Numbered from the stretch's first letter, positions 2,255 to 55,628 are shown. The stretch: DNA of 64,000 nt from a candidate division WOR-3 bacterium (GCA_027050205.1 JALUCS010000097.1:17195-81194), one strand, 5' to 3'. Notes: generated from the sequence alone by a model not told the origin. Made by a program: numbers and translations.

Positions 2255-3112
2255 ATGCTCTGGCTCTTCGTCGCTCAGCAGTCGGCTTTGGACGTTAAGC
2301 CCATTCACCTCAAGGTCCTGAACCTCACGAAGAACGCCCCAGTACTGGACACCCTTCAGGCGGAGGTAGTTACCTTTACGGGGGACGGGGGGGTGAAGGT
2401 CGTAGATACGGTGGAGGTCTACGGAGGCGGTACCCTGTACGTACCCCCCGCCGTCCATATCCTGGCCTTCAACGTCCTCTACGAGGGAGAGGTGTTCCCC
2501 TCAAACGTTGTGGTCGTAGGTAGGGACACCCTGGCCGAACTTTTCGTGTACGATATAACCTACGACACGTCCGTAGTTAAGCTGCTGTCGGAGAACATCG
2601 GCATACTCCGGGACAGGGGCGGGTACAGGGTCGTGGAGGTCTTCTTCGTCTTCAACAACAGTAAGTACGCGTACAGGGGTCCTTCGGTAAGGGTCAAAGT
2701 TCCGAGGTACGCGACAGCCCTCTCCCTCACAACGGGGGACGAGGACATCCTAAGGCAGGGGGAGGAGGTCATTCTCAACCCTCTGGTCCTACCCGGTGAG
2801 GGGAACTTCGCTCTCTCCTACGTGATCCCGAAGGACTACTTCTCCGTCAGCAGGGAGGGGGCCGGAGACTACAAGCTCCTCGTGGATACCCTCACGCCGA
2901 TAGTGGTCAAGTACGCCCTGTACAGGGGGACGGAGGAGTTTGAGGGGGAGCGGATAAGGGTGTGGGAGGGCAAGCACCGCATAGCCTTCTACGTCGGGGT
3001 TCCTCCCCTAAAGAGGGAGATGGTGTATTACGGCCTCGCCCTCCTCTTCGTCCTCTTCGGGGCGGTCTTAGTTAGCCTCCTGTACCTCCCCCCTCGCCGT
3101 AGGAAGGGCTAA
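2255..3112 (+). CDS. Hypothetical exported protein with C-terminal membrane anchor
   Basis: 285 aa; short hydrophobic N-terminus, beta-rich body, C-terminal TM helix followed by PPRRRKG. Confidence 0.7.
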   Translation: MLWLFVAQQSALDVKPIHLKVLNLTKNAPVLDTLQAEVVTFTGDGGVKVVDTVEVYGGGTLYVPPAVHILAFNVLYEGEVFPSNVVVVGRDTLAELFVYDITYDTSVVKLLSENIGILRDRGGYRVVEVFFVFNNSKYAYRGPSVRVKVPRYATALSLTTGDEDILRQGEEVILNPLVLPGEGNFALSYVIPKDYFSVSREGAGDYKLLVDTLTPIVVKYALYRGTEEFEGERIRVWEGKHRIAFYVGVPPLKREMVYYGLALLFVLFGAVLVSLLYLPPRRRKG

Positions 3113-3147
3113 ACCAGGAACGCATTACGGGATTAAAATAACCGCTA

Positions 3148-4944
3148 ATGTTGCTCTTTTTCCTGCTTCAGGCTCCGGATACCTTAGGGCAGCAACCTCC
3201 ACAGGGTGGGCAGGCGGTTGAGGAGGAGGAGGTCATAACGGGTGAGGCCGAATTAGAGATAACGGACTTCAAACGTCCCCTCTACTTCTACATGCCGGAT
3301 ATGACCTCCCTCGTCCCCGACTGGAAGGACGTAATGGCCCTGCGGTTTGAGGACTCCCTGAGGTTCTTCAACACCTACCGCCTCCCCCCCAAGCCGAAGA
3401 AGAAGAGTTGGTTCTCCAAGGGGCCGGAGAGGGAGGAGATGGAGAGGTGGTACCTTCAGGCCGCCAAGTACGGCGTCGGTTTGGTTAGGGTCGGTCTGTT
3501 CAAGGAGGCCATAGAGGTGCTTAGCGAGGTCGTCCAGTCCGACTACCTGACGGGTGGTCCCTCCTACGTGGCCCGTACCTACTACATCCTCGCCTACGTC
3601 TATAGTAAGGACCCGGAGACGGGCAGGGCCTACGGTAGTATGTTCCTCTCCGACTACTACAACAGGCCGTGGAACGAGGGCATAGGCTGGGTAGTCTGGG
3701 CCTCCGGGGAGGCTAACTTCTACGCCAGGCACTGGCTTCAGGCCGAGTCCATATACGTGCGCAACGTCAACGAGGGTAAGAAGCCCCTCCTCATCGCCCT
3801 CTCCCGCATGGGAGCGGCGTGGTGCAACCTCCACGCTGGCAAGTACGAGGACGCGTACAACCACGCGGCACAGGCCGCCCCCAACCTGACGGGGGTACCG
3901 AGGGCGCACGCCCTCCTCGCCGAGGCCATAGCCGCCTTCAACACGGGTAGGACGGAGGAGGCCCTGAACATCCTCCTTAGCATAGGTAAGACGGGCCATC
4001 CCCCCACGGACGCCGACGTCCTCTACTACATCGGCTTCGTCTATGAGGCCATGCACCAGTACGATAAGGCCCTGCAGTACTACCAGAAGGTGATGGAGGA
4101 CTACGCCAACCTACCGAGGGCCGGGGACGCCGCCTACCGCACCTACACCATATACCTCGGCACCAACAGGCAGGACGAGGCCAAGAAGACCCTCGTCTGG
4201 TTCGTTGAGAGGTTCCCCAACCATCCGGACGCCCCGAGGGCGCTCTACACCCTCGCCGAGATCTTCTACAACGAGGGGGAGCACCGGGAGGCCCTGAAGT
4301 ACCTGAAGCAGCTCTATACGAACTACCCCAACTCCGACCTCTATCAGATAGCCCGCCAGAGGGCACAGCAGGTGTATGCCATCCTCGCCAAGCAGGATAC
4401 TACCGTCCTCTGGGAGTTCCTTCGGGAGTTCCCCAACAGCAACGATGTGGCGGACGCCTTCCTGTACTGGGGAGGGAAGTTCCTTGAGGAGGGGAAGGAC
4501 ACTCTCGCCGCCCGCTACCTCTACCGCATGGGCGTGGAGTTCCCCAAGCATCCGCAGGCCCCGGACGCCCTCCTCTCTGCCGGTAAGATATACTACAACC
4601 TGAAGATGTGGAGCGACGCCGCCCAGACCTTCCGGAAGATCGTCAAGCTCTACCCCAACTACAAGAAAGTGAGGGAGGCCAAGATACTTCTCGCCGTCTC
4701 CCTGATAAACCTGAAGAAGGACTACGAGGCGATAAAGCTCCTTGAGGAGGAGCTCCAGAAACCCGACCTGACGGACGCCGAGAGGGCGGACATCTACAAG
4801 TACCTCGGGATGGCCTACAAGGCCCTCGGAAAGTCCTACAAGGCCCGGAACTACCTTGAGGAGGCCAAGGTCCTCTACTTCGGTCTCGGCAAGTTAGACG
4901 AGGTGGATAAGGTGGATAAGCTGATGGAGGACATACCGTACTGA
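3148..4944 (+). CDS. Tetratricopeptide repeat protein (BamD/CpoB-like repeats)
   Basis: 598 aa with repeated TPR units of the type A..ALY..G..YY...Y..A...F..V...YP. Confidence 0.85.
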   Translation: MLLFFLLQAPDTLGQQPPQGGQAVEEEEVITGEAELEITDFKRPLYFYMPDMTSLVPDWKDVMALRFEDSLRFFNTYRLPPKPKKKSWFSKGPEREEMERWYLQAAKYGVGLVRVGLFKEAIEVLSEVVQSDYLTGGPSYVARTYYILAYVYSKDPETGRAYGSMFLSDYYNRPWNEGIGWVVWASGEANFYARHWLQAESIYVRNVNEGKKPLLIALSRMGAAWCNLHAGKYEDAYNHAAQAAPNLTGVPRAHALLAEAIAAFNTGRTEEALNILLSIGKTGHPPTDADVLYYIGFVYEAMHQYDKALQYYQKVMEDYANLPRAGDAAYRTYTIYLGTNRQDEAKKTLVWFVERFPNHPDAPRALYTLAEIFYNEGEHREALKYLKQLYTNYPNSDLYQIARQRAQQVYAILAKQDTTVLWEFLREFPNSNDVADAFLYWGGKFLEEGKDTLAARYLYRMGVEFPKHPQAPDALLSAGKIYYNLKMWSDAAQTFRKIVKLYPNYKKVREAKILLAVSLINLKKDYEAIKLLEEELQKPDLTDAERADIYKYLGMAYKALGKSYKARNYLEEAKVLYFGLGKLDEVDKVDKLMEDIPY

Positions 4945-4970
4945 CGGCTATATCCTCTCCCCCTCCCCCT

Positions 4971-4976
4971 TAGAAT
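4971..4976 (+). promoter_or_regulatory. -10 box TAGAAT 7 nt before nuoA ATG (leaderless-type promoter; example of about 20)
   Basis: TAGAAT-acctccc-ATG with no SD; same geometry recurs throughout the window. Confidence 0.7.
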
Positions 4977-4983
4977 ACCTCCC

Positions 4984-5340: not shown

Positions 5341-5404
5341 TGGAAGGGAAGTTTTTGAGTCAGGGTAAGACGCTAACGTAGATAGCGATGGTGTGTTCAG
5401 TCAT

Positions 5405-5443
5405 CCCCCCAGTGTGAGGTGGAAACACCCACCCGCTGGGGGG
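5405..5443 (+). terminator. Long GC-rich hairpin with GAAA tetraloop downstream of nuoA; possible terminator
   Basis: CCCCCCAG...GGTG-GAAA-CACC...CTGGGGGG; weak U-tract. Confidence 0.45.
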
Positions 5444-6473: not shown

Positions 6474-7109
6474 ATGACGATGATGCTCAACCTTATCCTC
6501 GCACAGACGCCGGTTTACAGGGGACAGCACACCCAGCCCCCTCAACTCCAACGACCCTCCTCCCAGGACACATCCCGTTCCACTCAACAGCTTCCGTATA
6601 TCACCGATCCTTACGTCGCCTGTAAGATGGGGGAGTCAGACGCCGGGAAGGAGACTAGCGTCTGGGAAGAGAAGTGGTTTGCCTTAGGGTGTATCGTGGG
6701 TCTCTGCGTGGGACCCTTTGGCTACATCATCTCCTTATTCGTCAGAGTCCCTTCTCCTAAAGGTCCTTACGTCAATATGTCCCCTGCTGCGAGGAAACGC
6801 TACGAAAAGTGCTACAGGAGAAAGGGGAAGGAGAAACTCCAGGGGGCTGCTATAATGGGTACAACTTCCGCCTGCTTAATCCTTGGATTTCTGCTTAATC
6901 AGGCCGATGAGTCGACTAGGGGGTCAGATATAAATATATCCTGCCCATCTCCTTCACCACCTCCTCCTGTAGTATCCTGCCCCTACTCATATACAGTTGG
7001 GAACCCCGGTAGTTTCGGTCTCCTAAGAGTTATCCCCGAACTTGAGCCGCCAGTTCGGCCACCAGTCAGGTATCGTAAGCAGCAGAGACCAACCCAACAC
7101 CGAAGATAA
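6474..7109 (+). CDS. Hypothetical membrane protein with Pro-rich tail
   Basis: 211 aa; short hydrophobic N-terminus, two hydrophobic segments, YEKCY motif, poly-Pro stretch. Confidence 0.6.
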   Translation: MTMMLNLILAQTPVYRGQHTQPPQLQRPSSQDTSRSTQQLPYITDPYVACKMGESDAGKETSVWEEKWFALGCIVGLCVGPFGYIISLFVRVPSPKGPYVNMSPAARKRYEKCYRRKGKEKLQGAAIMGTTSACLILGFLLNQADESTRGSDINISCPSPSPPPPVVSCPYSYTVGNPGSFGLLRVIPELEPPVRPPVRYRKQQRPTQHRR

Positions 7110-7759: not shown

Positions 7760-8485
7760 TTGAGAGTAGTAGTGGTCGTACCCACCTACAACGAGGCCGA
7801 TAACATAGCCGACCTGATAGCCGAGTTGCGCTCCGTTCGTATATTCGAACGCATAGTCCCCGACGTACTCGTAGTGGACGACAACTCCCCCGATGGCACC
7901 TGGAGGATCGTTGAAGAGATAGGGAAGAGGGACCCGGCCGTCCATCTCCTCAAGCGTCCGGGGAAGATGGGCCTCGGTTCGGCCTACGTTGAGGGGTTCA
8001 AGTGGGCCTTGGAGCGGGGATACGACGTCATCGTGCAGATGGACGCCGACTTCTCCCACAACCCGAAGGACGTCCAGAAGTTGGTTGAGGCCCTCGCTAA
8101 CTGCGACGTTGTGATAGGCTCCCGGTACTGCAACGGCGTTAGCGTCATAAACTGGCCGATAAGCCGCCTCCTCCTCTCCTACTTCGCCAACCAGTACGCC
8201 CGTCTCCTGACCGGGGTAAAGATAAACGACCTCACCGGGGGTTTCAAGGCCTTCAAGAGGGAGGCCCTTGAGGCGTTGGACCTTGATAAGATAAAGTCGG
8301 ACGGCTACGCCTTCCAGATAGAGGTGAACTTCTACCTCTGGATGAAGAGGTTCAAGATGTGCGAGATCCCGATAGTCTTCGTTGAGAGGAGGGCCGGTAA
8401 GTCCAAACTTAGCCGCTCAATCATATGGGAGGCCTTCTGGCTGGTACTCCGGCTGTTCCTGAAGCGGATAACCGGTAGGGTATGA
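7760..8485 (+). CDS. Polyprenol-phosphate mannose synthase-like glycosyltransferase (GT2, Dpm1 family)
   Basis: VVVPTYNEADNI, VVDDNSPDGT, GLGSAY, QMDADFSH, GYAFQIE; TTG start 7 nt after TATAAT. Confidence 0.92.
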   Translation: MRVVVVVPTYNEADNIADLIAELRSVRIFERIVPDVLVVDDNSPDGTWRIVEEIGKRDPAVHLLKRPGKMGLGSAYVEGFKWALERGYDVIVQMDADFSHNPKDVQKLVEALANCDVVIGSRYCNGVSVINWPISRLLLSYFANQYARLLTGVKINDLTGGFKAFKREALEALDLDKIKSDGYAFQIEVNFYLWMKRFKMCEIPIVFVERRAGKSKLSRSIIWEAFWLVLRLFLKRITGRV

Positions 8486-9432
8486 GGTTCTACGAGCTGT
8501 TGAGGGTGGGGTACGGTGTCCTTGAGGAGGCCCTCACCTCCCTCCGCCGTAGGTTCCCACGAAGTAAGGTGGTCGTCTTCACGGGGGACGAGCTCTCCCT
8601 ACCCTACGGGGAGAAGGTGGCCGAAACCGTCCGCGGCACCCTCGTAGTTGGCGAGCGTTTCCCGGAGGGCGACGGGTACGACCTCGTCCTCGGCGTTGGG
8701 GGCGGGAGCGTGATAGACCGGGCGAAACTCTGGGCCTACGAGAGGGGGGTACCCTTCGTCTCCGTCCCCACGCTGGCCTCCAGCGATGGCATAGCCTCTC
8801 CGGTCAGCGTCCTGAACGGGAAGAGCCGCTTCCTCACCCTCCCCTACGGCGTCATCGTAGAGCTGGAGATAATAGCGAAGGCACCGAGGTGGAGCCTCCT
8901 CGCCGGCATAGGGGACCTCGTATCCAACCTCTCCGCCTCCCTGGACTGGGACCGCTTCCGGGAGAAATCAAGGGAGCCGTACTCACCGGAGGCCTCGGCC
9001 ATGGCGAGGTTGGGGGCGGTCTCCCTCCTCTCCTCCCGCTCCCCTAACCCCCTTGAGGCGCTGGTGTGGGGACTCATCCTAAGCGGCCTGGCCATGAACG
9101 TAGCCGGCTCCTCAAGACCGGCGAGCGGTCCGGAGCATAAGGTGAGCCACGCCCTTGACTCCTTGGGCTACGGGGAGAAGCACGGGATACAGGTGGGCAT
9201 CTTCACCCCCCTGTTCCTGAAGTTGAACGGCTATCCGGCGTGGGAGGAGGTAAGGGAGTACCTTAAGGGGGTAGGGCTTCCGGAGTACGTCACCCTCACC
9301 GAGGAGGGGGCAGTTGAGGTCTTCAGTAAGGCCTCGGAGACCAGGCCCCACAGGTACACCGTCCTTGAGGAGGTTGGCTGGGAGAAGGTCCTTGAGGAGG
9401 CCATCAGGCTGGGTTTCGTCAGGATAGTTTAA
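8482..9432 (+). CDS. egsA: sn-glycerol-1-phosphate dehydrogenase family (EgsA/AraM)
   Basis: GVGGGSVID, SVPTLASSDGIASP, AGIGD, AGSSRPASGPEHKVSHALD, HGIQVG, RPHRYTVLE; coupled to the GT2 gene by an ATGA overlap. Confidence 0.85.
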   Translation: MRFYELLRVGYGVLEEALTSLRRRFPRSKVVVFTGDELSLPYGEKVAETVRGTLVVGERFPEGDGYDLVLGVGGGSVIDRAKLWAYERGVPFVSVPTLASSDGIASPVSVLNGKSRFLTLPYGVIVELEIIAKAPRWSLLAGIGDLVSNLSASLDWDRFREKSREPYSPEASAMARLGAVSLLSSRSPNPLEALVWGLILSGLAMNVAGSSRPASGPEHKVSHALDSLGYGEKHGIQVGIFTPLFLKLNGYPAWEEVREYLKGVGLPEYVTLTEEGAVEVFSKASETRPHRYTVLEEVGWEKVLEEAIRLGFVRIV

Positions 9433-13369: not shown

Positions 13370-13375
13370 GGCGGG

Positions 13376-22460: not shown

Positions 22461-22998
22461 AGGCTATTGTACGGGCGAAAGGGAGGGAGTTGAAAGGGGA
22501 GATAAAGGGTAAATAACGAACTTTATTGAAAATTTCGGAGTTTTCATAAAAACGCAAGGACTGTGGGCAGCAAAAACTACCAACGGGAGGTGTTCGGGCG
22601 GGGACGACCGTAAATTCGGGTTGCCGGCTCCCGTTAGCATCTCTTCGGTATTTGGCGTATGGGGTGATGCGTTCTCTGTGAATTTCCGTCAATTGCGTCC
22701 CGTACTCATTGAGTATGGGATGTGGCTCAAGATTTATCCCGGAACCCTTTGACTACACCCTATCGGGATCCAGAAGATGAATTTTTGTAGGATTTTTCCC
22801 CGATATATGCGACTTCCGGATTTTCAAAGGGTGTTGGGTTGGGTGATGGATACTGCGTAAATGCGATCAACATAGATAAATCGTGCAAAGGGCATCCTTG
22901 CACCTCCGTCCCTTCACAGGAGAACGTCGCCTTAGTTTGAACATCAACGTTCAAAACTTCTAAAGTTTTCCTTTAATTCCGATGTAAAATTTAAAAAT

Positions 22999-41918: not shown

Positions 41919-41928
41919 GAGGTAGAAA

Positions 41929-42915
41929 ATGATCCTGTGGATGCTTGTCCTTCAGTACGGCGAGAGGAATTACAACCCTTTCGCCAAGGTAGGAGTTGCG
42001 GGAAGTAAGTTCCTCCAGCTCTATACCTCCCCCAAGGTGGGTGCTATGGGGGAGGCCTCCGTCAGCTACTTCACGGACGACCCCCTACTAATGGTGAACA
42101 ACCCCGCCTCCGCCATGTTTATGAACAGCAAGGCTGTAGGTGTGGGGTTCATGCCCTACTGGGTCCAGACCTACGTCACGGATATAGCATACATCCACCC
42201 CCGCGGTAGGTTCAAGTTCGGTGGGTACCTCCACGCGGCCACATCCCTCGGATTCAAACACACCGTAGTTACGGACGACGGCTACGAAGAGCAGGGGACG
42301 TTTAACTACACCGGTATGGCCATGGCCTTCGTTATGGGTGCCCGCCTGACCGACAAGTTCTCCGTGGCCCTCGCCCCTAAGCTCATATACGAGGGTTTTG
42401 GCTCCTTTACGAATACCTACGCCTTCGCTGTAGATGTCGGGACGGTGTTTGAAACCGGATGGCACGGTGTAAACATCGGAATGACCGTCCAGAACTTCGG
42501 GACGGACCCGAGGCTCTCTGGAAATTACGTAATCTACAGCTTTACAGGAAACGAGGTGGTTGAGGATACTGTTCCCTACAAGGCCTATAACCTTCCGCTG
42601 ACCTTCAGGGCCGGCCTCTCCTTTGACGTATTCCGCAGGTCCTACCACGCCCTCATAGGGGTACTTGAGGTCAATCACCCCAACGACAACGCCGAGTCCT
42701 ACAACCTGGGTTTCCAGTACTCCTACGCCGATATGTTCTTCCTCCGTCTGGGCAAGAAGTTCCGCGGAGGGTTCAACTGGGTATCCGACTCCCACGACGA
42801 GGTCTTCAACTTCGGCTTCGGCCTGAAGTTCGCCAGTATGTCCTTTGACTACGCGTACACCGTAAACTACCGCATGCCGGACGTCAGCAGGTTCGGTCTC
42901 GTATATACCTTTTAA
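41929..42915 (+). CDS. porV: PorV/PorQ-family outer-membrane beta-barrel
   Basis: KVGVAGSKFL...KVGAMGEA...NNPA N-terminal signature; AVDVGT and LPLTFRAG motifs; C-terminal FDYAY...RFGLVYTF. Confidence 0.85.
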   Translation: MILWMLVLQYGERNYNPFAKVGVAGSKFLQLYTSPKVGAMGEASVSYFTDDPLLMVNNPASAMFMNSKAVGVGFMPYWVQTYVTDIAYIHPRGRFKFGGYLHAATSLGFKHTVVTDDGYEEQGTFNYTGMAMAFVMGARLTDKFSVALAPKLIYEGFGSFTNTYAFAVDVGTVFETGWHGVNIGMTVQNFGTDPRLSGNYVIYSFTGNEVVEDTVPYKAYNLPLTFRAGLSFDVFRRSYHALIGVLEVNHPNDNAESYNLGFQYSYADMFFLRLGKKFRGGFNWVSDSHDEVFNFGFGLKFASMSFDYAYTVNYRMPDVSRFGLVYTF

Positions 42916-42927: not shown

Positions 42928-45723
42928 ATGAAACGGTTTGCGATAGCCCTTGGTCTCTTAGGCGCTACACCCCTTATGGGGGTAGATAGCGTTGAGGTAT
43001 ACCTGCCCACCTTTAAGCTCATATTCTCCATAGATGAGGTTCCTACGAAGGTTCCCGTCCTGGACTCAACGGAGTACGCGTACATCGCCCTCCTGAAGAA
43101 GAACATCTACGGTATGAACCTCGTTGAGGTGGCCTCCTTCAGGGACTTCCCTCCTGTCGGATGGTCCGCCGACCCCGAGTGGGGTATGACCTACGAGCTG
43201 ATAGAGGGGTCCTACTACTATCCAGCCGTGGTTTATACGGCCACGCCGGCCACCGGTTCCTACTCCCTGACCTCCGCCGTGCTTGACCTGTCCGTTACGG
43301 ACGTACCCATTCCGGACACCCTGACCTTCACCTACAAGCTAACCGGTATGGAAAACGGGGATACCATGTACATAGAGGTCATAGGAAGCGGGGACGACAC
43401 GACCACGTGCTGGACCCCCATAGGCACCCTAACCTCCGCGGACATTACGGATACGATGAGTGTCAGGCGCTTCCAGGTTCTCCCCGACTCCTACACCTGC
43501 GGCACTTTGGACGATAACTCCGTTGTGCAGCTAAGGTTCCGCTTCAAGGACAACAGCAGCCCCACAATGGATAGCTCTAAGTTCTTCGCCCTCTACAACG
43601 TGTATGTCGGTGGATACTGGTACAGGCCCACCGCCAACGACACCATTCCGGACTCTCTGGTGAGCTACTACGTCGGCACGGTCAAGGCTGCCTTTGAGAA
43701 CGTACCCGACAGGATGCTCAGCTTTCTCGGCCTGACCAAGGACGCCCTGAAGACCAAGAGCGCCGACAAGAAGGTCGTCATCCTCATAGCCCCCTTTAAT
43801 ATGTCTGACGTCTATCTGAATCAGAGGTACCTCGGTTATTGGGACGCCTACGACACCCTCAACAGCTACGACCTCATATACATAAACTACGCCAAGCAGA
43901 CGGCCCAGGGTGTCTTCGGCGGGGTACACTGGGATACCACGAAGGTGCGCAGGTATCTGGCCTTCCAGTACGCCCGTCTGGTGGCCTACAGCCTTGACAC
44001 TACCGAAGCTTACAACTACTACCCTGTATGGTTCAACCAGTTCCAGATGGCCATCAAGGCCGCTTGGATAGCCCACAAGGTACTCCGGAGAGACTTCGGT
44101 GATCCTCTCGGACTGGCAGGAGGTATAAAGGGAGGAACGCCGGAGAAGAGCAGTCAGCCCCTCATCATAGCGTCCTTTACGTACGATGGAAAGGTATATA
44201 CTGACGAGTACATCAGCAAACTCCTACCTTGGGTTATCCACGTAGAGGACATCGCCGGTGAATCCGCCGTTAAGGAGGCTTTGAGTGAGAAGGACGTTCC
44301 CTTCTTATGGTATCCTTACCTCGCAAACTCCTTAAACAACCTCATCCTAGGAGCCGGTTCCAACTTCTACAAGGAGGTGGAGACCTTTTACCTCAAGGAG
44401 TTGGGTGCTGGTCAGACTTGGGACGATGCCCTCGCAGACTATCCGCACTTTACCAGCGATGACGTCTTCAACACCCTTGACTACACGGCCTCCAGTGCCG
44501 CCAACGTGGTGAATAAGGTCGCCTTCCCGTTTGTGGCTTACAGGTATAGCGTAAACCAGCCCGGCCGTAAGTACCTGAGGTTTGACGGTGCAGACTACAA
44601 CTCCGTGACTACGTACATAGGCGGTAGCCTTGACACCATACCGGGCTTTGTGCTTTATAAGGTGGACCTTAACAACAACACGTGGGAAAGGGTACAGCTG
44701 GACGAGAGGTTAAGGTGGTCCTTTAGGGATGACGCCGGCCTAAGGGGTAATTACTACTTCCTGCTGATAAACGTCGGTGCCACCGCTCTCTACTCCATAA
44801 GCGCCGACTTTAGGGATACTTTGCCGCCTACGGTGGCCGACTTCGGTATCCTCCCCGATGCTGCTGCCCCCGAGTTCATAGACGTCTATCTGTACTCCGA
44901 TAGTAAAGTGTACTTTGACGCCGGTCAGGAGGGGGCGCTCGTGCAGTTCTGGCCGAAGAACGACTCGGCCAAGTACCAGGTCTACAACCTGTACCTTGAC
45001 TACGCCGGCATGGCCGACACCACCTACCTGGTCTATAGGAAGCAGATCAGGCTCTCCTTCACGGATATCTTCGGAAACGAGTACTTCGGTCCTATCAAGT
45101 ACCGCCTCACCCGCGCCCAGAACGCCGCCGGCGTGGACTACATAACAACCCTGACCGACACTTCCGGTGAGTTCTACAAGGTGAAGCTCGGTACGGACAT
45201 GGCTGACATCATACCCGACGTCCTTTCTATGGCCTCCACGGCCGGGGAGCAGAGGTTCTACCTCTTCCCTAACGGTAGGGAGTACGTCTTCAACGTCCCC
45301 GTCCACGCTCAGGTCAAAGTGGCCGCCCAGGAGGGAGACCGGGTCTTCTACTTCAACGGATACGAGTGGGTGGAGGCCCGTTCCTACTACTATCCCGAAG
45401 AGGGTAAGGTTGAGGCCTTCGTGAGCGGCGCCTACCGCATATACGTCGGCAAGGAGAAGCCCTCCACCGCTCCCGTTACCGCCTTTAACGTCAAGAGCGA
45501 GGTCAACAAGGTGATCGTATCCACCCCCGAAGAGGGACAAATCACCCTTAAGATATACAACCCGATGGGTCGTCTCGTTCGCACCCTTATCCACAACGCT
45601 AAGGGAGCCGGGAACTACGCCTTCAGGATAGACGACCTGCCGCGCGGTGTCTATCTCGTGCGCGTGAAGGCCGGTAAGTACGCCCGTACGGTTAAGCTCC
45701 TTGTACTTGGAGGTGTAAGATGA
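42928..45723 (+). CDS. Large exported multi-domain protein with degenerate zinc-metallopeptidase-like domain and T9SS type A-like C-terminal domain
   Basis: Signal peptide; LAFQYARLV...WFNQ where HExxH...WxNE is expected; C-terminus IYNPMGRLVRTL...GVYLVRV...KLLV. Confidence 0.75.
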   Translation: MKRFAIALGLLGATPLMGVDSVEVYLPTFKLIFSIDEVPTKVPVLDSTEYAYIALLKKNIYGMNLVEVASFRDFPPVGWSADPEWGMTYELIEGSYYYPAVVYTATPATGSYSLTSAVLDLSVTDVPIPDTLTFTYKLTGMENGDTMYIEVIGSGDDTTTCWTPIGTLTSADITDTMSVRRFQVLPDSYTCGTLDDNSVVQLRFRFKDNSSPTMDSSKFFALYNVYVGGYWYRPTANDTIPDSLVSYYVGTVKAAFENVPDRMLSFLGLTKDALKTKSADKKVVILIAPFNMSDVYLNQRYLGYWDAYDTLNSYDLIYINYAKQTAQGVFGGVHWDTTKVRRYLAFQYARLVAYSLDTTEAYNYYPVWFNQFQMAIKAAWIAHKVLRRDFGDPLGLAGGIKGGTPEKSSQPLIIASFTYDGKVYTDEYISKLLPWVIHVEDIAGESAVKEALSEKDVPFLWYPYLANSLNNLILGAGSNFYKEVETFYLKELGAGQTWDDALADYPHFTSDDVFNTLDYTASSAANVVNKVAFPFVAYRYSVNQPGRKYLRFDGADYNSVTTYIGGSLDTIPGFVLYKVDLNNNTWERVQLDERLRWSFRDDAGLRGNYYFLLINVGATALYSISADFRDTLPPTVADFGILPDAAAPEFIDVYLYSDSKVYFDAGQEGALVQFWPKNDSAKYQVYNLYLDYAGMADTTYLVYRKQIRLSFTDIFGNEYFGPIKYRLTRAQNAAGVDYITTLTDTSGEFYKVKLGTDMADIIPDVLSMASTAGEQRFYLFPNGREYVFNVPVHAQVKVAAQEGDRVFYFNGYEWVEARSYYYPEEGKVEAFVSGAYRIYVGKEKPSTAPVTAFNVKSEVNKVIVSTPEEGQITLKIYNPMGRLVRTLIHNAKGAGNYAFRIDDLPRGVYLVRVKAGKYARTVKLLVLGGVR

Positions 45724-46997
45724 AAAGGTTTATAACCGTCCTGTTGGTGTCCGGAACTCTGGTGTGGGGTGTGAGCGGGTGTAAGCTGTTCCACGCACAG
45801 GACACCACCCCTGAGGCTGCCGAGATGGGTAAACTCCTGAAGGAGGGGTGGCAGTACTATAAGGAGGGGAAGTTTGACTCGGCCCTGGCCAAGTTTGACA
45901 CGGCCGCTATCATAGTGGACCCCTCCAACATGGAGGCCCACCTCGGTAGGGGACTCACACTCATGAGGAAGGGCCTTTACATTGATGCCCACCAGGAGTT
46001 CGCCCTGATATACACCCCTTACGTCCAGGAGAACGTCTGGATCGTACCTCTCTACGTCCCCGGCGATAGGGAGGGGGTGTTTGATACGATAATAAGCGGC
46101 ACCGACACGTTGGCCTTTGGTATAGACAGCAACGACTTGCTTAGAGCCGATCAGAACAGTAGGCTCATCAGTTCCCCCAACTATACGATCCTCGCCGCGT
46201 GGGAGCTCGGCCCCCTCTTCGCTTCCAACGGTATCTCCTTTGAGGATGCGGACTACGTCTATCTTCCCGTTGACCTCAAGAAGATCATGGTTAAGCCCGA
46301 CACGGCTCTCCTACCTAAGGGCATAGACCCCGTAACCTTTACGACGGCTTTTACCCCCACGACGGCACCTCTAAACGTTACCTCGTCCTCTATCTCCTAT
46401 GTTGATACGGCTGGACCCGTCGTCTTCCTAAGCAGCACCAAGAGCGGTCCCGATAGGGAAACGGAGTTCCCCCTTCTGTTCGACTGGTTGTACGATGTCG
46501 ACACCGCCACCTCAACGCCCATAGGGGACACCATCACCCTGACTATGGTCGTCCTGAAGATGGCCAAGAGCGGTCTCGGGGAGAGGCCCGATATAGTTTG
46601 GATGGCCCTCGCCGCCGACGCCCACACCTACTACATGGAGGCCATAGACAACAGGAAGGCAGCCTACCTCGCCTTCGCCGCCTACCTCCTCTTCCCTATG
46701 AGGGGTGATATACCCTCCGACGCGAACTACGCCGGTATCCCCGGTCTGACCACGGACGACGCCTCCGTCCTAAAGGGCCTCGCCGGAGTGGCCGCCCTCG
46801 GGTACCACAAGGCCGGATGGGTCGGGAACGCTGTCTCCGTCATCCGTTTCTTCGGCGACAGCACCTATCCCAACTCCCTGTGGAACTACATACCCGACAC
46901 CTACGAGGAGATGGTAAACACGGTGGGCTTCACCAAGGACGCGAACGTTAACTATTCGGTCTATAACAGGGCCAACGAGCTTTTCTTCGGTATGTAA
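45720..46997 (+). CDS. Lipoprotein with N-terminal TPR
   Basis: Lipobox VSG-C; TPR GWQYYKEGKFDSALAKF...AHLGRG. Confidence 0.75.
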   Translation: MKRFITVLLVSGTLVWGVSGCKLFHAQDTTPEAAEMGKLLKEGWQYYKEGKFDSALAKFDTAAIIVDPSNMEAHLGRGLTLMRKGLYIDAHQEFALIYTPYVQENVWIVPLYVPGDREGVFDTIISGTDTLAFGIDSNDLLRADQNSRLISSPNYTILAAWELGPLFASNGISFEDADYVYLPVDLKKIMVKPDTALLPKGIDPVTFTTAFTPTTAPLNVTSSSISYVDTAGPVVFLSSTKSGPDRETEFPLLFDWLYDVDTATSTPIGDTITLTMVVLKMAKSGLGERPDIVWMALAADAHTYYMEAIDNRKAAYLAFAAYLLFPMRGDIPSDANYAGIPGLTTDDASVLKGLAGVAALGYHKAGWVGNAVSVIRFFGDSTYPNSLWNYIPDTYEEMVNTVGFTKDANVNYSVYNRANELFFGM

Positions 46998-47013: not shown

Positions 47014-48663
47014 ATGATTTGGGTAATCGCGGCTTTGCCCAACATGCAGGTTATAAACCTGCACAGCGCTCCCCGTATGAGGGTGGCGAAGGGCCTTATG
47101 GAGCATCTAGAGGCCCGCAAGAGGATAGACACGAGGGTGCCCAAGACGGTTGGCTCCTCGTCCTACACCCCCTTCACCCTGAGCGAGGTCTTCGGCGATA
47201 CCGCCCCCAACCAGTACACCCTTTGGGGGAGCAGCCACCGTTCCCTCTACAGGCACGGCGATACGCTCTGTGTGGCTTACAGGCGTACAGATACCCGTGG
47301 AAGCGGGTACATAGCCGTAGCCTTCTCCTTTGACAACGGCGCTACCTGGACCGTGCGCGAGGATATAAACGAGGCGGCCGGTCTCCTTGATGCTGGTGGC
47401 CGTTATCCTAACTGCGTGGGCTTCTACAACGGTGACCCCGTCGTAACCTGGCCCGAGCTCACGGCCGGTCCAGCCTGGGGTGCTGCATGCGTAGCCGTTG
47501 CCTCTACTTCCCCTTACGGTTTCTGTACTGATCCTTCTTACCAGACCTATCACACCTTCGCCTGGCCTATAGATGCCAACACCTACGCCGTTATCGGTTT
47601 CACATCTAACGACGATATAATCTACTATACCTATGACCTCTCCACAGCCACGGCGAGCTCCGTTCAGATAATCCGCAACTCCGGGACGGGTGAAGGTGTG
47701 TATATGTATGACATAGGTCGCTATCAGGCCGACGCTTACGTCTACGGCTACAGCTACGCCGATTCTGGGGACGTTATCTTCAGGATACAGGGCGACGGTA
47801 CGGTCACCCCTGCAGCCTATCCCGTCTATTACGGTTTCGTTACGCCTTCTGACACGATAATGTACATCTTTGATGCCAACCTCTCTATAGATCTGGACGG
47901 TAATCCGTGGGTGGTTTACATGGCGAAGGATACCCTTAATAACGCCGGAAGTGGTATAGGCCACGTTATGCTGTTCAATCAGGCCGAGGATACGTCCGGT
48001 GCCACGGCAAGGGCGCTCTACATCCCCGATCCCTCCGATCCTTACAGGGCATTCCGTAAGAATCCTATGTACAGGCCGACTTTGGCTTTTGGGCCTGACA
48101 ACAATACCATCCTCGCAACGGTCCTCGTATTCTCTGACTCCGCCAACTACGGATGTCCGACCGTGACCGGTAGCTCTGCTCCTCCCACCGAGCTCGTGGC
48201 CTTCGCTTCCACGGACGGGGGTGCCAACTGGTTCCCTGCGGACGGTGACCTCATAGGTGACGATGCTACCGCCGACGTGATGGAGGACCTGTACCTCCTC
48301 AACTTCTATCCCACCAACGGGTACTACGTCTATCCCGGCGGCGACGTGTGTGTCGTTTATCTCACTCCTCTTGACGGCACCACCCAGCTATACTGTAATG
48401 CTGCGGAGGAGAACGGTGTGGCTCAGGCCCTCATCCACGTCTCCTGCGGCCAGGCCGTTGGCGTAGCCGAGAAGCCCGCTAAGAGCGGTGCCATCACCAC
48501 CGTCTCCGTCCTCAAGGGCGGCGTTGAGGTCAGCGGTCCCGCCTCCATCTACGACGCCAAGGGCGCCCTCGTCGCCACGACCAAGGGTGGCTTCGTCTCC
48601 CTTGATAGGGGCGTCTACTTCGTCAAGACCGGAAACCGCGTGAGCAAGGTGGTGGTCAGGTAA
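47014..48663 (+). CDS. Exported beta-propeller (BNR/Asp-box) protein with T9SS type A-like C-terminal domain
   Basis: Asp-boxes SFDNGATW and STDGGANW; C-terminus IYDAKGALV...GVYFV...KVVVR; ATG 47014 is better spaced from AGGAGGT than 47008. Confidence 0.75.
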   Translation: MIWVIAALPNMQVINLHSAPRMRVAKGLMEHLEARKRIDTRVPKTVGSSSYTPFTLSEVFGDTAPNQYTLWGSSHRSLYRHGDTLCVAYRRTDTRGSGYIAVAFSFDNGATWTVREDINEAAGLLDAGGRYPNCVGFYNGDPVVTWPELTAGPAWGAACVAVASTSPYGFCTDPSYQTYHTFAWPIDANTYAVIGFTSNDDIIYYTYDLSTATASSVQIIRNSGTGEGVYMYDIGRYQADAYVYGYSYADSGDVIFRIQGDGTVTPAAYPVYYGFVTPSDTIMYIFDANLSIDLDGNPWVVYMAKDTLNNAGSGIGHVMLFNQAEDTSGATARALYIPDPSDPYRAFRKNPMYRPTLAFGPDNNTILATVLVFSDSANYGCPTVTGSSAPPTELVAFASTDGGANWFPADGDLIGDDATADVMEDLYLLNFYPTNGYYVYPGGDVCVVYLTPLDGTTQLYCNAAEENGVAQALIHVSCGQAVGVAEKPAKSGAITTVSVLKGGVEVSGPASIYDAKGALVATTKGGFVSLDRGVYFVKTGNRVSKVVVR

Positions 48664-48681: not shown

Positions 48682-48711
48682 ACGCCCCGCCGTACGGCGG
48701 GGCGTTTTTTT
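48682..48711 (+). terminator. Intrinsic terminator ending the TonB/PorV operon
   Basis: Perfect inverted repeat ACGCCCCGCCG-TA-CGGCGGGGCGT followed by a T run. Confidence 0.85.
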
Positions 48712-50680
48712 ATCTGACGTCAAGCGACCCCGGAACCCTTACAACGAAGGCGTTCCCCTCCTTAACGTCCCCGAAGACCCTCTTTTCGCCCTTGAGGGTG
48801 CCGGTGTCCCCCGCGATGCCGGCGACGAACACGTACCCCCTGGGTCCTACGGCTAAAGCGCGGGTCTCTGCTCCTCCCCTCGGTGAGAGCAGGACGGTGG
48901 CCAAGTGCCGGGAGAGGTCGCTGCTCAACTTACTGACGAACGGGTAGGGGGGACCTATGTCGGGAGGTTCCACCATAAACCACTGCGTTATCCCGGCGAC
49001 GAAGACGTTCCCGCTGTCATCTACGGCGATTGCGTAAGCGAAGTTGTGTTTCTTGTGGGAGAGCGCCGCCGTAGCCAAGAGTTTAAGGTCCTCGGTGAAT
49101 TTGGCCACGAAAACGTAGAAAACGTACATCTTGAAGGGATTTCCCACGACGACCCTCAACTTCGGTAATCTGATGGAAGGGTTGCCTATAGTCCCGGCGA
49201 TGAATACGTCCCCGTTGGAATCTACGGCGATGGACGGAATTGACCAAAGGAAGGGAACTAAGGGCAGAAACACTGTGGATGTGAGGCTGTCTAAGCCGTT
49301 GGACAACCTACCGACGAAGTAAGACGAAATTTTGTGGTGCGGGAATAGGTTGAGAACCTTGATAATTTTGCCGTCCGGGTCAAACTCCTCGGAAGACAAT
49401 GTAAAGCCGGTGATATAGACGTCTCCCTTCGGGCCTACGGCTACGGACCTGGACAAGTCCAACCCCTCCGACCCCAGTACGGCCGTGGCGATGACTTCGG
49501 TTAGGTCGTTGGTTAGCTTACTGACGAAGATGTCGTCTCTTCCGGGCGAACCGAAGACCACCATGTTCGTCGCGAAGTCCTCGTAGTGCTTAGTTATGCC
49601 TAACGCAAAAACGTTCCCATCGCCGTCCATAGATAGGGACTCCACCCTGTCCCCCCTGCTTGAGGCGAGTATTACCGTGGAGATGTGCCGGTTCAGGTCC
49701 CCGCTCAACTTACTGACGAAGGCATCCGTTCCACCCCCCGGTTTACCGAAGACCTTCCTGCTCGGTGCGAACCCGTAGTAATCCTGCGTCCATCCCGCAA
49801 CGAACACCTCCCCGCTGCGGCTCACGAGGACGGCCCTCGCTCCATCGCTCGCCTCCGATCCCAGTACGGCCGTGGCGATGTGTTCCGTAAGGTCGTTGCT
49901 CAACTTACTGACGAAGGCGTCAAAGTAGTAGGGGAAGGTGGAGCCGAAGACCTTCGCATTCGGTGCGAAGTCATCGTAAAGGGCGGTCTCGCCAGCGACG
50001 AAGACGTAGCCGTCGGGTGATACGGCTACAGATGTGGCCGCGTCTACGCTACTGGAGGCCAGTATCGCCGCAACTATCGGGTCAATAACGAGGGTGTGCC
50101 TCCTGTCGTACTCCCCGACTGCAAACTTGAGGGTGTTTCCTGAAAGTACGGGTCTGACCTCAACCTCCTCCGCCCCCTGATAGGCCTTGAGACCGCTTAT
50201 CTTCACAACCTTCTTACCATCCTTGACGATATAGAGGCCATCCCCCTCCACTTTCATATCTCCATCCGTCTCAACCCTTATCTGTTCCGGATCCCCACCG
50301 GGGCGGACGATGAACTGGAGTTCAACGACCCCCCTGCCGTCGGCCGTCAGGACGGCGTCTATCTTCGGATAGACTTCCTTCAGGACGACCCGCCTGTACG
50401 TCGGTACGTTGCTTATGGCCTTCCCTTGGCCGAAGTAGGAGACCTTCGTCTTCAGGGGCATATCGCCCGTTATGAACCTCGGTTTCGTCCCGAAGGATAC
50501 CCTTACGCCGTTGATGTGGATGGTGCCGTCCTTGAGGACGTAGGCCGTCGTCGGGTGCATAGAGTAGAAGACCACCTCGTTGGGCAGCTGGCCGACGTTC
50601 TGGACGAAGAGCATACGGAGGCCCTCACCGTAAAGCCCAACAAGCTCCGGCGATACGGACATCTGGATCAGGAGGAACAT
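48710..50680 (-). CDS. SBBP-repeat beta-propeller exported protein
   Basis: N-domain FVQNVGQL...YRRVVLKEVYPKID..F.V.PGGDP..IDP; repeated DAFVSKLS.DL and AVD..GNVFVAG; ATG 50680 (6 nt after TATAAT) preferred over 50764. Confidence 0.85.
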   Translation of the reverse strand: MFLLIQMSVSPELVGLYGEGLRMLFVQNVGQLPNEVVFYSMHPTTAYVLKDGTIHINGVRVSFGTKPRFITGDMPLKTKVSYFGQGKAISNVPTYRRVVLKEVYPKIDAVLTADGRGVVELQFIVRPGGDPEQIRVETDGDMKVEGDGLYIVKDGKKVVKISGLKAYQGAEEVEVRPVLSGNTLKFAVGEYDRRHTLVIDPIVAAILASSSVDAATSVAVSPDGYVFVAGETALYDDFAPNAKVFGSTFPYYFDAFVSKLSNDLTEHIATAVLGSEASDGARAVLVSRSGEVFVAGWTQDYYGFAPSRKVFGKPGGGTDAFVSKLSGDLNRHISTVILASSRGDRVESLSMDGDGNVFALGITKHYEDFATNMVVFGSPGRDDIFVSKLTNDLTEVIATAVLGSEGLDLSRSVAVGPKGDVYITGFTLSSEEFDPDGKIIKVLNLFPHHKISSYFVGRLSNGLDSLTSTVFLPLVPFLWSIPSIAVDSNGDVFIAGTIGNPSIRLPKLRVVVGNPFKMYVFYVFVAKFTEDLKLLATAALSHKKHNFAYAIAVDDSGNVFVAGITQWFMVEPPDIGPPYPFVSKLSSDLSRHLATVLLSPRGGAETRALAVGPRGYVFVAGIAGDTGTLKGEKRVFGDVKEGNAFVVRVPGSLDVR

Positions 50681-50718
50681 TGGACGATTATAGAGCCGGA
50701 AGTTGGGCCGTGGTGCGA

Positions 50719-52184: not shown

Positions 52185-52190
52185 AGAGGA

Positions 52191-52838
52191 CTATTCTAAG
52201 GGTGGAGAGGGAGGCTTTCCCGTCTGGCCGGCGATGGCGTGGAGGAGGAACGCCAGGAGCAGTAAGGGCAAAAGCCGCCAATCCCCTTTGGCCTTCGGTA
52301 GAGGGACCACTACGTCCAACTTTCTATCGGGGTCGTAGGGACCGTCCCCCACCAGTCTAAGGGCCGAGAACCCCGGAATCCTAGCCACCCTTAGGGACCC
52401 CGCCATCACCGTTGAAGGAAGGGAGGAGTCGGGCGAGAGTAGGAGGACCTCTACGTAGTCTATGGGTACCGGAAAGTCCCCGTTCAGGACGTTCAGGCGG
52501 AGGGTTCCCCTTCTGGGATAGAGGCGGTAGAAGAGGGTTATCCTGTGCCTTCCTGGAGGGAGGCAGCCCTCCCCCAAGGTTATGAGGGTGGCGGTGTCGG
52601 TGGTGGTGTGGGAGATGGGCATAGGCCGGGTGTTGTCGTAGGCTCGGAGGGGTTCAACCTCCCCAGAGGAAGCGGGTACGGCTCTCCGGAGCGGGCCTCC
52701 CAACCTCTTACCGGCGACGATCAGGGAGTAGTCTTCCCGGACCTCTACGGGGTATCCGAGTCTCACTATACTCCTGCGGTAGGTCATCCTCTCGGAGTAG
52801 GGGGCGGTGTCGCAGGCGAAGGAGAGGAGTAGAAGCAC
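52191..52838 (-). CDS. Hypothetical membrane protein, DUF2207-like
   Basis: LRLNVLNGDFPVPIDYVEV segment; C-terminal TM. Confidence 0.55.
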   Translation of the reverse strand: MLLLLSFACDTAPYSERMTYRRSIVRLGYPVEVREDYSLIVAGKRLGGPLRRAVPASSGEVEPLRAYDNTRPMPISHTTTDTATLITLGEGCLPPGRHRITLFYRLYPRRGTLRLNVLNGDFPVPIDYVEVLLLSPDSSLPSTVMAGSLRVARIPGFSALRLVGDGPYDPDRKLDVVVPLPKAKGDWRLLPLLLLAFLLHAIAGQTGKPPSPPLE

Positions 52839-52839
52839 G

Positions 52840-53604: not shown

Positions 53605-53782
53605 GGCTTACCCCCTTTTTCAAAAGCACCATATCGGTTTTATACACCGTTATGGCCGCCCTTATCCGTCCCATCTCGGCCTCCAACCTCCTCAACTCCG
53701 CGTAGTTGTACAGGAAGGTGATAAGGCTGAAGAGGAACCACAGGATGGCGATGGCGTACCCGAAGGCTACTATCCACCTCAT
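53531..53782 (-). CDS. Small TM plus coiled-coil protein (FtsB/DivIC-like architecture)
   Basis: ATG 53782 overlaps the pyrR TGA; MRWIVAFGYAIAILWFLFSL followed by a heptad segment; 3' end overlaps the nitrilase start. Confidence 0.45.
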   Translation of the reverse strand: MRWIVAFGYAIAILWFLFSLITFLYNYAELRRLEAEMGRIRAAITVYKTDMVLLKKGVSREVKDSSRAVRHDDEGGSPKKGRK

Positions 53783-54312: not shown

Positions 54313-54332
54313 AGGCGGTATTTTACGGAGGA

Positions 54333-54431
54333 CTGGCGTAGTTTCCCGTATCCGGCATTAAGCCAGTAGAGGGATCCCTATCCGCTGTCGGGGGTCCCGT
54401 TCGCCATCGGACGGAAGGCGAACGTATTTTT
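54333..54431 (+). ncRNA. Candidate small structured RNA (three hairpins ending in a U-tract)
   Basis: CTGGC/GCCAG, GGGATCCC/GGGGTCCC and CGTTCGCC/GGCGAACG stems followed by TATTTTT; family not recognised. Confidence 0.25.
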
Positions 54432-54944
54432 AAAATCTGAAACTTACCCTTTAGAAAATCGCTAATACCTATTTAGGAAATATAAAGGCTTACTTTCGTA
54501 AACTGAAAGCCCATTTTAAAATTCCACTTCCCCGTTTGATAGGGCTACGGAGCAATCCCCACCCCATCAGCGTAATGCGATACGGGGAATGATCTTAGAG
54601 GATGTATCACACTATCCGCCAATACTCATCCGACAACTCCTCAAATCGTACCGTCGCACATTCCAACGTATTTGGGTGTAAGTTAGGCACCTGCTCGTGC
54701 GATCGGTCCTATGACGACTGAAAGGAGAGGGATAAGCGTTCGGTGATGCACTTTCAAAATCCGCAATTATGACTTCAAGGAACTGAAAGTCGTACTTCAA
54801 GAAATCGTAAGTTACACTTAAGAATTCTTGATCTCCCCATTAACAGACTTTGAACACATCGCATACCCACCGTCTGCCGAATACCCGCCTACGTCCCCTC
54901 GGAGGTTGGCCACCACCCTATCCCTCCCTTAAAATCTCCGTACG

Positions 54945-55628
54945 ATGTGGAACTTCCTCGCGGCTATTCTCCTACCCTCTTCAAAGTACGCCGTAGGGTT
55001 CAGCGGACTCTGGTTTGACTTCGGGGGAGAGGTTGCCAACTTCCAACACGGGTATGGCCGTTTTATCTTGGAGGATGATGGGGAAGGGGTGCTATTCTCC
55101 AAGGGGAAGGCCGCACTATTCGGATGGGGGGTAAAGGGAGGGGTGTTGCTCCGTTTCGGTCCCCGTCCTGTCTTCGTTGGCTTGGGGGTATCTCACTACG
55201 TCGGTTCGGGTGGTACGACCTACAGAGGAGCGAAGTGGACCGACTTTAGGGGGAGGCATATAGTTAGGGCTAGCTGGGGGTTGCTTCCTTGGAAGGCGTC
55301 CGTCTCTACCCTGCGGCTCTCCGTCGGTTATATAGTCAGGCTATCTTCCAACGTTCTATGGGTCGGGGTTTCCCCCGGACGTATGTCCCTCTCTATGAAT
55401 CTGGACTGGGATCTCCTAGAGGAATACGACGGCCTGTTCATCGGTGCCTTTGCGACACTTTACCGCCGATACCGTCCTTTCTTCTTGGGAATTTCGCTCT
55501 CTTACGATTTCCTACCGGATTTGAGGCGACGGACCAAGAATATATACGGTTTTTTCCCCGACCGTCTGATGGGGAACTCCAATCTGGGGATAGGCTTCAA
55601 GGTGAAGTACCTGTGGGTGATGATGTGA
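54945..55628 (+). CDS. Hypothetical outer-membrane beta-barrel-like protein
   Basis: Alternating hydrophobic strands, aromatic-rich, ends LGIGFKVKYLWVMM; TAAAAT 9 nt upstream. Confidence 0.6.
   Translation: MWNFLAAILLPSSKYAVGFSGLWFDFGGEVANFQHGYGRFILEDDGEGVLFSKGKAALFGWGVKGGVLLRFGPRPVFVGLGVSHYVGSGGTTYRGAKWTDFRGRHIVRASWGLLPWKASVSTLRLSVGYIVRLSSNVLWVGVSPGRMSLSMNLDWDLLEEYDGLFIGAFATLYRRYRPFFLGISLSYDFLPDLRRRTKNIYGFFPDRLMGNSNLGIGFKVKYLWVMM

Follow-up and report, generated by a model that had tools for sequence, protein, structure and literature searches.

Short uncharged N-termini as probable minimal export signals in a candidate division WOR-3 bacterium

Introduction

The n-h-c model of signal peptides, which calls for a charged n-region and 7–15 core residues, is the basis of textbooks and predictors alike. 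Whether it covers every bacterial lineage is the question raised by a 64,000 nt stretch of DNA from a candidate division WOR-3 bacterium (GCA_027050205.1, JALUCS010000097.1, nt 17195–81194). The whole stretch is called the window here, positions are counted from its first nucleotide, and genes are named by the position of their start codon. A first-pass annotation noticed that the outer-membrane protein PorV and several other products of the window begin with only a few hydrophobic residues and no basic residue, and it proposed that these ends represent a second, minimal class of export signal, with an adapted signal peptidase or a dedicated route to serve it. We ask whether such starts are genuine, what kinds of protein carry them, and how they might work.

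The window spans part of contig C97 (C97:17195-81194) in a 2.05-Mb metagenome-assembled genome (MAG; G000 below) of 135 contigs and 93.5% completeness, the close relatives of which are labelled candidate division WOR-3 and come from hydrothermal-vent metagenomes. It carries an operon for a TonB receptor, PorV and a cargo protein with the C-terminal sorting domain (CTD) of the type IX secretion system (T9SS), along with various housekeeping genes. Presence and absence of genes were scored across 31 genomes (G000 and 30 relatives) in families f1–f9, G000 belonging to f1. Gene calls were home-made, using codon log-odds scoring, greedy selection of open reading frames (ORFs) and starts scored by a Shine-Dalgarno (SD) site or a −10 box. 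The short N-termini are referred to as stubs; a strict stub has at least five of residues 2–7 drawn from LIVFMWAC, no K, R, D, E, H, N, Q or P among them, and a run that ends by position 14. A slash in a sequence marks the end of a stub or signal.

Results

PorV is encoded at nt 41929–42915 (+ strand) and belongs to the PorV/PorQ family of outer-membrane barrels (NF033709 at 132.7 bits, where the cut-off is 90, with the profile beginning at residue 26). Its N-terminus, MILWMLVL/QYGERNYNPFAKVG, is an eight-residue stub followed by Gln. An AGGAGGT Shine-Dalgarno sequence (nt 41917–41923, + strand) lies 5 nt before the ATG and overlaps an in-frame TAG (nt 41923–41925); as this stop is two codons upstream of the ATG, no N-terminal extension is possible. 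Direct reading of the sequence therefore bears out what the first-pass annotation had said of this start, and the same SD geometry is used at the neighbouring genes 39585 and 42928. In an alignment of the DNA upstream of porV (10 readable rows of 11, G011 being left out) the stretch TAGGAGGT is nearly invariant, and the GAAA spacer shows small changes only (A/G, A/T).

With 30 relatives surveyed, an open PorV frame of 329–336 aa was found in 11/11 genomes of family f1. Ten genomes from two genera share the short start, which is identical in public gene predictions, and the stubs remain hydrophobic although their sequence drifts (MILWMLVLQ, MILWFLLSQ, MLMLMVLSQ, MILLILSQ, MIWMLLAQ and MMWILLAQ). 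For PorV the stub is confined to f1. All 16 orthologues from other families of the class carry a K/R signal instead, beginning MKR or MRK and ending in A/Q, G/Q or S/Q just before a conserved KVG/KAG (KVGT) motif, with a small residue followed by Gln in 15/16. Distant homologues from the databases (P0009–P0075; Calditrichia, Ignavibacteria, Marinimicrobia and others) have K/R signals of 18–30 residues in 63/67 cases, and the other four (P0021, P0037, P0046 and P0074) look cut short, their first residue lying within the signal or within the mature part.

Across the genome, strict stubs begin 133 of the 1,770 proteins of G000 (7.5%). The corresponding frequency was 1.9% at internal Met residues, and control sets gave 0/191 for family f8, 1/75 for f7 and 0/41 for annotated E. 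coli coding sequences. Longer upstream starts, which the first-pass annotation had named among the findings that would refute its idea, are largely absent: 96 of the 133 stubs have no upstream in-frame ATG, GTG or TTG at all, PorV is fixed by its TAG, and just six of the remaining 37 could have a classical-looking start further upstream. A −10 box (TAnAAT) is located 4–12 nt upstream in 81 of the 133, and an SD site in 38. The short N-termini are true gene starts. Since the caller over-weights internal SD-like sites, and so took 2492 and 3517 instead of 2255 and 3148, the genome-wide count is conservative.

The stubs follow the consensus M-L-[LW]-[IL]-L-L-[SA]/Q. Residues 2–7 are 40% Leu with almost no Gly or Pro, and Trp occurs at positions 2–4 in 25/133, often at position 3, although Trp makes up just 1.4% of the proteome. 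In 88/133 the uncharged run stops at positions 7–9, giving a core of about six residues (seven with the initiator Met), which is at or below the lower limit of the 7–15 expected of an h-region. This core is more hydrophobic than the classical h-regions of the same genome (mean Kyte-Doolittle values of 2.8 and 2.1, respectively). Strict stubs have no K or R, whereas the classical signals of G000 do. Methionine aminopeptidase leaves the initiator Met in place when the residue at position 2 is large, as it almost always is in stubs, and the Met should thus be retained.

The first polar residue is Gln in 25.6% of stubs, compared with a background of 5.3% (p = 9e-15). When the residues preceding the first Gln after a hydrophobic tail are counted, two discrete length classes appear, one of 6–9 residues (peak 7, n=43) without K/R and one of 15–22 with K/R; only 3/48 Gln-ended starts without K/R exceed nine residues (lengths 10 and 13). 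In the 42 stubs of this Q-type, position −1 is most often Ser (21 cases), then Ala (13) and Thr (three), with S/A/T/G/C together making 39/42, and position −3 is Leu in 24 (L/I/V in 32). The remaining stubs show no clear site. Long classical Q-type signals have Ala or Gly at −1 and mostly Leu at −3.

Many of the carriers must be exported, since they function outside the cytoplasm. BamA, with five POTRA domains and an Omp85 domain, starts MLLIFLS/Q; SurA starts MIILLAA/Q, with SurA_N beginning at residue 12; and Skp/OmpH starts MVLTLLLA/Q, with position 1 of the profile at residue 12. The Pfam scan of nine stub proteins that identified these three also revealed an OEP resembling TolC, a second Omp85 protein, an M16 peptidase and a TlpA-like redoxin, and the profiles begin at residues 8–13 in BamA, SurA, Skp/OmpH, OEP, Omp85 and the redoxin. 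To these are added PorV and the T9SS cargo: among 18 proteins with the CTD (PF18962), 13–14 have stubs and four have classical signals, 42928 being one of the four.

Within G000, stub and classical forms also occur side by side in the same protein families. Thirteen such paralogue pairs were found, 11 of which align with an offset of 11–16 residues, the classical form being the longer at its N-terminus. Examples are MLMAVVS/QVVV and MRKIGGLISVLTPALLLG/QTVV; MLSFVVATTLLYEDFES… and MRKVLLVAALSITTPLYGGFALYENFEES…; and MLIVMALTV/SGRV, which aligns with an offset of 15 residues to the TonB-dependent receptor of the window (nt 36394–39573, + strand; MKRFLAGLFGLLVALPLFG/QYGKIAGRV), a protein with matches to the plug and barrel domains. 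Stubs thus replace classical signals in paralogues as they do in the PorV orthologues. The alignments support the view that the stub corresponds to the last seven or so residues of the classical signal, including its small/Gln site. Four near-identical paralogues of about 210 aa, spread over several contigs, start MLL[YC][LF]LS/Q[PT]VELEG.WWAALPLKRDTLIL, and two of about 479 aa start MLWILI[ST]/QDLYGVWNEAWPMFRHDYKRTG; both sets are recently duplicated families of stub proteins.

Classical signals are nevertheless plentiful in this genome, and a reading of the sequence agrees with the first-pass annotation in assigning textbook MKR signals to the window genes 36394, 39585, 42928 and 45720. Gene 42928 (nt 42928–45723, + strand) specifies a T9SS CTD cargo protein (PF18962, 28.3 bits) with the signal MKRFAIALGLLGATPLMG, and 45720 (nt 45720–46997, + strand) a TPR lipoprotein with a classical signal peptidase II (SPII) signal, MKRFITVLLVSGTLVWGVSGC. 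About 50 lipoproteins have MKR/MRR leaders and lipoboxes, against some six stubs with a lipobox-like Cys; Tat (twin-arginine translocation) substrates (MKRRDFLK…, MTRRDFLK…) keep classical leaders, and so do some 30–40 proteins of the signal peptidase I (SPI) type. Signals of the Q-type number 42 among the stubs of G000 and 15 among its classical signals. In ending A/Q or G/Q, SPI signals of the classical kind in the WOR-3 class resemble those of Bacteroidetes (36394 and 31583 in the window; relatives L020–L035).

The census was extended to 16 relatives by sampling between 13 kb and 300 kb of each genome. The frequency of strict stubs was 8.9% in f1 genus 2, about 6.9% in f2, 7.2% in f5, 4.9% in f3, 3.1% in f4, 1.3% in f7 and 0% in f8. 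Short uncharged N-termini outnumber long charged ones by a factor of 1.4–2.0 in f1, and in f8 the ratio is down to 0.17. BamA has no K/R n-region in most of the families sampled, a single Lys occurring in the f3 leader and in one f4 leader (relatives L155–L184). Its leader is 7–8 residues long in f1 and f2, 11–12 in f3 and f4, 13 in f7 and 16–17 in f8. The bamA, surA and skp genes stay intact over 35–40% sequence divergence. We had considered the stub to be a trait of f1 only and rejected this, as it holds for PorV but BamA and the census display a gradient across the class. From these comparisons the stubs look like the product of gene-by-gene shortening on a permissive background, not of a single switch.

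The export machinery looks ordinary. LepB is single-copy in 29/31 genomes, and that of G000 has the usual transmembrane anchor, a GSMEDT box with the Ser, and a GDNRDFSWDSR box. SecY was found in 31/31 genomes (C95:13078-14097 in G000). A search for SecA_DEAD gave no match in the G000 MAG and matches in six congeners, four of them with a full SecA of about 1,010 aa, so the gap probably reflects incomplete assembly. A peptide deformylase is present in the G000 ORF set. With LepB single-copy and normal in its boxes, and SecA and SecY present, there is no evidence for the adapted signal peptidase or dedicated route that the first-pass annotation had suggested.

Its further proposal, that SecA, SecY and LepB might show lineage-specific changes, yielded a single lead. 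In alignment with E. coli SecY, isoleucine is retained at five of the six positions of the pore ring. The position equivalent to I187 is Ala in f1, in genus 3 of f2 and in f3, Ser in genus 4 of f2 and Ile in f4–f9 (relatives L124–L153). The f1 proteins also have two private changes near the plug, G58N and S68A. The pore-ring Ala is the only lead the machinery offers, and it appears to correlate in part, imperfectly, with stub frequency. The window also contains an archaeal-type gene resembling glycerol-1-phosphate (G1P) dehydrogenase (Fe-ADH_2, nt 8482–9432), which adjoins a GT2 gene. A change of membrane lipids was therefore considered as the cause of n-region loss, and was rejected: the gene is present in f1, f5, f7, f8 and f9 and absent from f2, f3, f4 and f6, and does not track the stubs.

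Besides PorV, the first-pass annotation listed nine short starts in the window. The starts are as it had given them, though one stub contains an Arg, and one protein has nothing that points to export. Gene 47014 (nt 47014–48663, + strand), with an SD site 6 nt upstream, specifies a BNR-repeat protein with the stub MIWVIAALP and a weak T9SS C-terminal sorting domain (TIGR04183, a weak match at residues 503–550, E = 0.0036); its orthologues in genus g2 start MLGLILAAAP or MIGLILVAAP. Gene 3148 (nt 3148–4944, + strand) codes for a TPR protein resembling YbgF/CpoB and BamD (TIGR02795, 1.7e-38) that starts MLLFFLL/QAPD. It lies 8 nt downstream of a TAAAAT box (nt 3134–3139) and so has a predicted leaderless mRNA. 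Its g2 orthologue starts MLLWVFIF/QEGNQAVEEEEV, with homology resuming directly past the stub. Gene 50680 (nt 48710–50680, − strand) encodes a DUF7948/SBBP beta-propeller protein (PF25778, 7.9e-29, plus SBBP repeats) with the stub MFLLIQ. It likewise appears leaderless, with TATAAT at nt 50692–50687, 6 nt before the ATG, and a paralogue starts MLWITAFPLRVDSEAVEAYNRGINMLFVQNVG.

The remaining starts belong mostly to proteins without a family match. Gene 2255 (nt 2255–3112, + strand) encodes 285 aa beginning MLWLFVA/QQSALD, where the N-terminus alone points to export. It is in the same frame as the ORF at nt 1517–2251, which also lacks a family match, and is split from it by a TAG and one codon (…KALSLR*G-MLWLFVAQQ…); the arrangement may reflect nothing more than close coupling of two genes, or else one gene that is split or read through. 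Gene 54945 (nt 54945–55628, + strand; 227 aa, no family match) has the stub MWNFLAAILLP and is presumably leaderless (TAAAAT, nt 54930–54935, 9 nt upstream). Gene 6480 (nt 6480–7109, + strand; 209 aa, no family match) starts MMLNLILA/QTPVYRGQ, with 6474 and 6480 ambiguous as the start. The product of 52838 (nt 52191–52838, − strand; 215 aa, GTG start) begins VLLLLSFAC, a stub followed by a lipobox-like Cys, and is one of the few lipoprotein-type stubs; its start is less certain, since the start chooser favoured an internal GTG. The FG-GAP repeat protein 22999 (nt 22999–24504, + strand; PF13517, 1.4e-21; TAAAAT at nt 22985–22990) starts MLYMIGRIAISP and is the one with an Arg, at position 7 of the stub; a paralogue at C93:2129 starts MIGIVAILPVAPLDISEPVVERRAELPPDSTI (MIGIVAILP), a clean stub. 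The weakest member is 27205 (nt 27205–28104, + strand; 299 aa, no family match), which starts MMPYLLAAS, overlaps the stop of an upstream geranylgeranyl-reductase-like gene (ATGA), and is the one without any pointer to export.

Many stubs have in-frame stops just upstream because TAnAAT −10 boxes contain TAA or TAG; the boxes lie 6–9 nt before the ATG, as at 3148, 50680, 54945 and 22999 and at the majority of stub genes outside the window. Stub genes with the box so placed are predicted to be transcribed as leaderless mRNAs. A search of RNA runs for evidence of the transcription starts found none that contains this sequence. Recoding or read-through of stop codons upstream of the stubs was examined and rejected, as the stops are a mixture of TAG and TAA and are accounted for by a −10 box, an SD site or the end of the gene before. 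Putative leaderless starts are common and over-represented among exported and membrane proteins: over the genome, a TAnAAT box 6–9 nt before the ATG accompanies 57% of stub genes, 44% of genes with classical signals and 52% of those with transmembrane-like N-termini, against 23% of other genes. Near the right end of the window (nt 60153–63494, − strand) are six tandem genes of about 187 aa with overlapping stop and start codons, all beginning MKEAVLDRPK..VLTYEDYLRLED…YELINGRL.

Discussion

Ortholog and paralog alignments, together with carriers that must be exported, support the existence of a second, minimal and uncharged signal class as first suggested. Its reach differs from the original idea in two ways, as the roughly 50 lipoproteins and the Tat substrates are outside it and the trait extends past one family as a gradient within WOR-3. 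The stubs are probably lineage-specific minimal Sec signals that lack an n-region and are removed by signal peptidase I; both the use of Sec and the cleavage are what we infer from the sequence comparisons. In this WOR-3 family they would stand in for the classical signal on most SPI substrates.

In mechanistic terms, a Leu-rich hexapeptide plus the N-terminal Met would suffice to engage SecA/SecYEG (or the signal recognition particle) and open the lateral gate, and a K/R n-region would be unneeded in this lineage. The single, ordinary LepB would cut at the retained [S/A]/Q and leave Gln at the new N-terminus, as with classical signals in this class. For lipoproteins, the proposed reason for keeping full charged leaders is the need to remain membrane-anchored during lipidation, and Tat substrates would keep theirs for the twin-arginine motif. 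A more specific version, which we offer tentatively, is that an uncharged, Leu-rich heptapeptide, M-Φ5-[S/A], serves in full as a cleavable Sec signal, and that most of the SPI secretome, including BamA, SurA and Skp, has moved onto it, enabled by a PrlA-like translocon with I187→Ala as the candidate change.

Several observations weigh against cleaved Sec signals of this kind. The chief difficulty is one of geometry: as a helix, a seven-residue peptide cannot span the bilayer, and the active site of LepB is at the periplasmic surface of the membrane, which makes it hard to see how LepB would reach the cleavage site. To our knowledge, cleavage at such a distance (−7) is unprecedented, and the literature on WOR-3 and on minimal signal peptides yielded no description of natural signals this short. 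The [SA]/Q site is present in only about a third of stubs, many of which run straight into D, E or K, and the preference at −1 differs, being Ser in stubs and Ala/Gly in classical signals. Family f5 is rich in stubs yet keeps Ile at the I187 position of SecY. Start choice in the home-made caller is imperfect, and the stub counts are estimates.

Some of the same facts would suit a signal that is never cleaved. Mature-domain targeting and a relaxed, PrlA-like SecY would then do most of the work, with the stub only helping to trigger the channel. A seven-residue segment is too short for the normal hairpin to bring its C-terminus to LepB, about two thirds of stubs lack [SA]/Q, and SecY has Ala or Ser at the I187 position in f1, f2 and f3; in E. 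coli, prlA alleles map to the pore ring and permit export without a signal sequence (PMC7530735). We nevertheless regard this as unlikely. Gln is enriched at positions 7–10 after a small residue, in the same L-x-[AS]/Q pattern as in classical signals, which argues for the same processing step; a Leu-rich N-terminus left on the soluble chaperones SurA and Skp would be awkward; and f5 has stubs with Ile in the pore ring.

More doubtful still is a separate export route, or an accessory factor, to which the stubs would address the non-lipoprotein envelope proteins of the lineage. The sharp separation of the length classes (6–9 and 15–22 residues) would fit, as would the strict sorting of substrates, with lipoproteins and Tat substrates classical and most SPI-type proteins on stubs, and the Ser preference at −1 unlike that of classical signals. 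No candidate machinery was found, however, and the same protein families use the stub or the classical form interchangeably, among paralogues and orthologues alike. The uncharged BamA leaders, moreover, form a continuous series of 7–17 residues across the class, a pattern easier to reconcile with stepwise shortening within a single pathway than with a change of route. That the stubs are artefacts (mis-called starts, 5′ ends truncated in assembly or pseudogenes, the true proteins having normal signals or not being made) is largely refuted and very improbable: the genome is a 135-contig MAG, the start chooser errs at some genes and six stubs have an alternative start, but the same starts recur in 10 independently assembled genomes, with stops, SD sites or −10 boxes directly upstream, essential bamA, surA and skp are affected and yet intact despite their divergence, and the stubs stay hydrophobic as their sequence drifts.

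If the stubs are minimal, cleaved Sec signals, then neither the n-region nor a membrane-spanning h-region would be a universal requirement of Sec export, and a natural proteome with uncharged signals of about seven residues would set a new lower bound for recognition by Sec and signal peptidase. Such a proteome would offer a natural counterpart to prlA genetics and supply very short secretion tags to test. In practice, SignalP-type inferences of the secretome, carbohydrate-active enzymes, peptidases and T9SS cargo from WOR-3 MAGs probably miss about half of the exported proteins. The interest of the finding is that it is systematic, conserved and directly testable.

Compared with known systems, the stubs are readily told apart from three classes of N-terminal leader. 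SPII signals of lipoproteins end in a lipobox ([LVI][ASTVI][GAS]C), which stubs lack apart from the six or so exceptions. Tat signals have a twin-arginine motif (S/T-R-R-x-F-L-K), and strict stubs contain no Arg. Type IV prepilin leaders are charged, end in Gly and precede a helix of about 20 residues with Glu at +5, whereas stubs are uncharged, run for 6–12 residues and are then followed by globular or barrel domains.

Closer parallels come from work on E. coli. In the 1980s–90s, the Inouye and Mizushima laboratories reportedly found that a more hydrophobic core can make up for the loss of the positive n-region. The stubs share with such engineered signals an uncharged n-region and a very hydrophobic core; the engineered signals differ in keeping at least eight core residues and a c-region, and we know of no signal as short as seven residues in total, nor of a natural case that is proteome-wide. 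Suppressors in prlA (secY) allow the export of proteins whose signal sequence is defective or missing (PMC7530735), and the SecY of f1 resembles them in having Ala at one of the six pore-ring positions. They are, however, laboratory alleles with fitness costs and not a natural, proteome-wide state, and the PrlA4 positions (F286 and I408) are unchanged here.

The Q-rule of Bacteroidetes, in which SPI cleavage leaves a +1 Gln that is cyclised to pyroglutamate (PMC5837995, PMC10653852), has been reported as typical of that phylum and not general in the Fibrobacteres–Chlorobi–Bacteroidetes (FCB) group, and Gln can also cyclise spontaneously (PMC5837995). In WOR-3, classical signals and stubs alike very often end in a small residue followed by Gln, which would extend the +1 Gln rule beyond Bacteroidetes. 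The type-I glutaminyl cyclase (PF05096) is absent from the 31 WOR-3 genomes, the M28-type cyclase not having been searched for. From classical Sec/SPI signals the stubs differ in having no K/R n-region, in a total length of 7–9 residues compared with 15–22 in the same genome and at least 20 in E. coli, in a core of about six residues that is Leu-rich and free of Gly and Pro, and in favouring Ser over Ala at −1. They share with those signals the N-terminal position, hydrophobicity of the core and the same families of cargo, and most stubs of the Q-type also have a small residue at −1 and an aliphatic one at −3.

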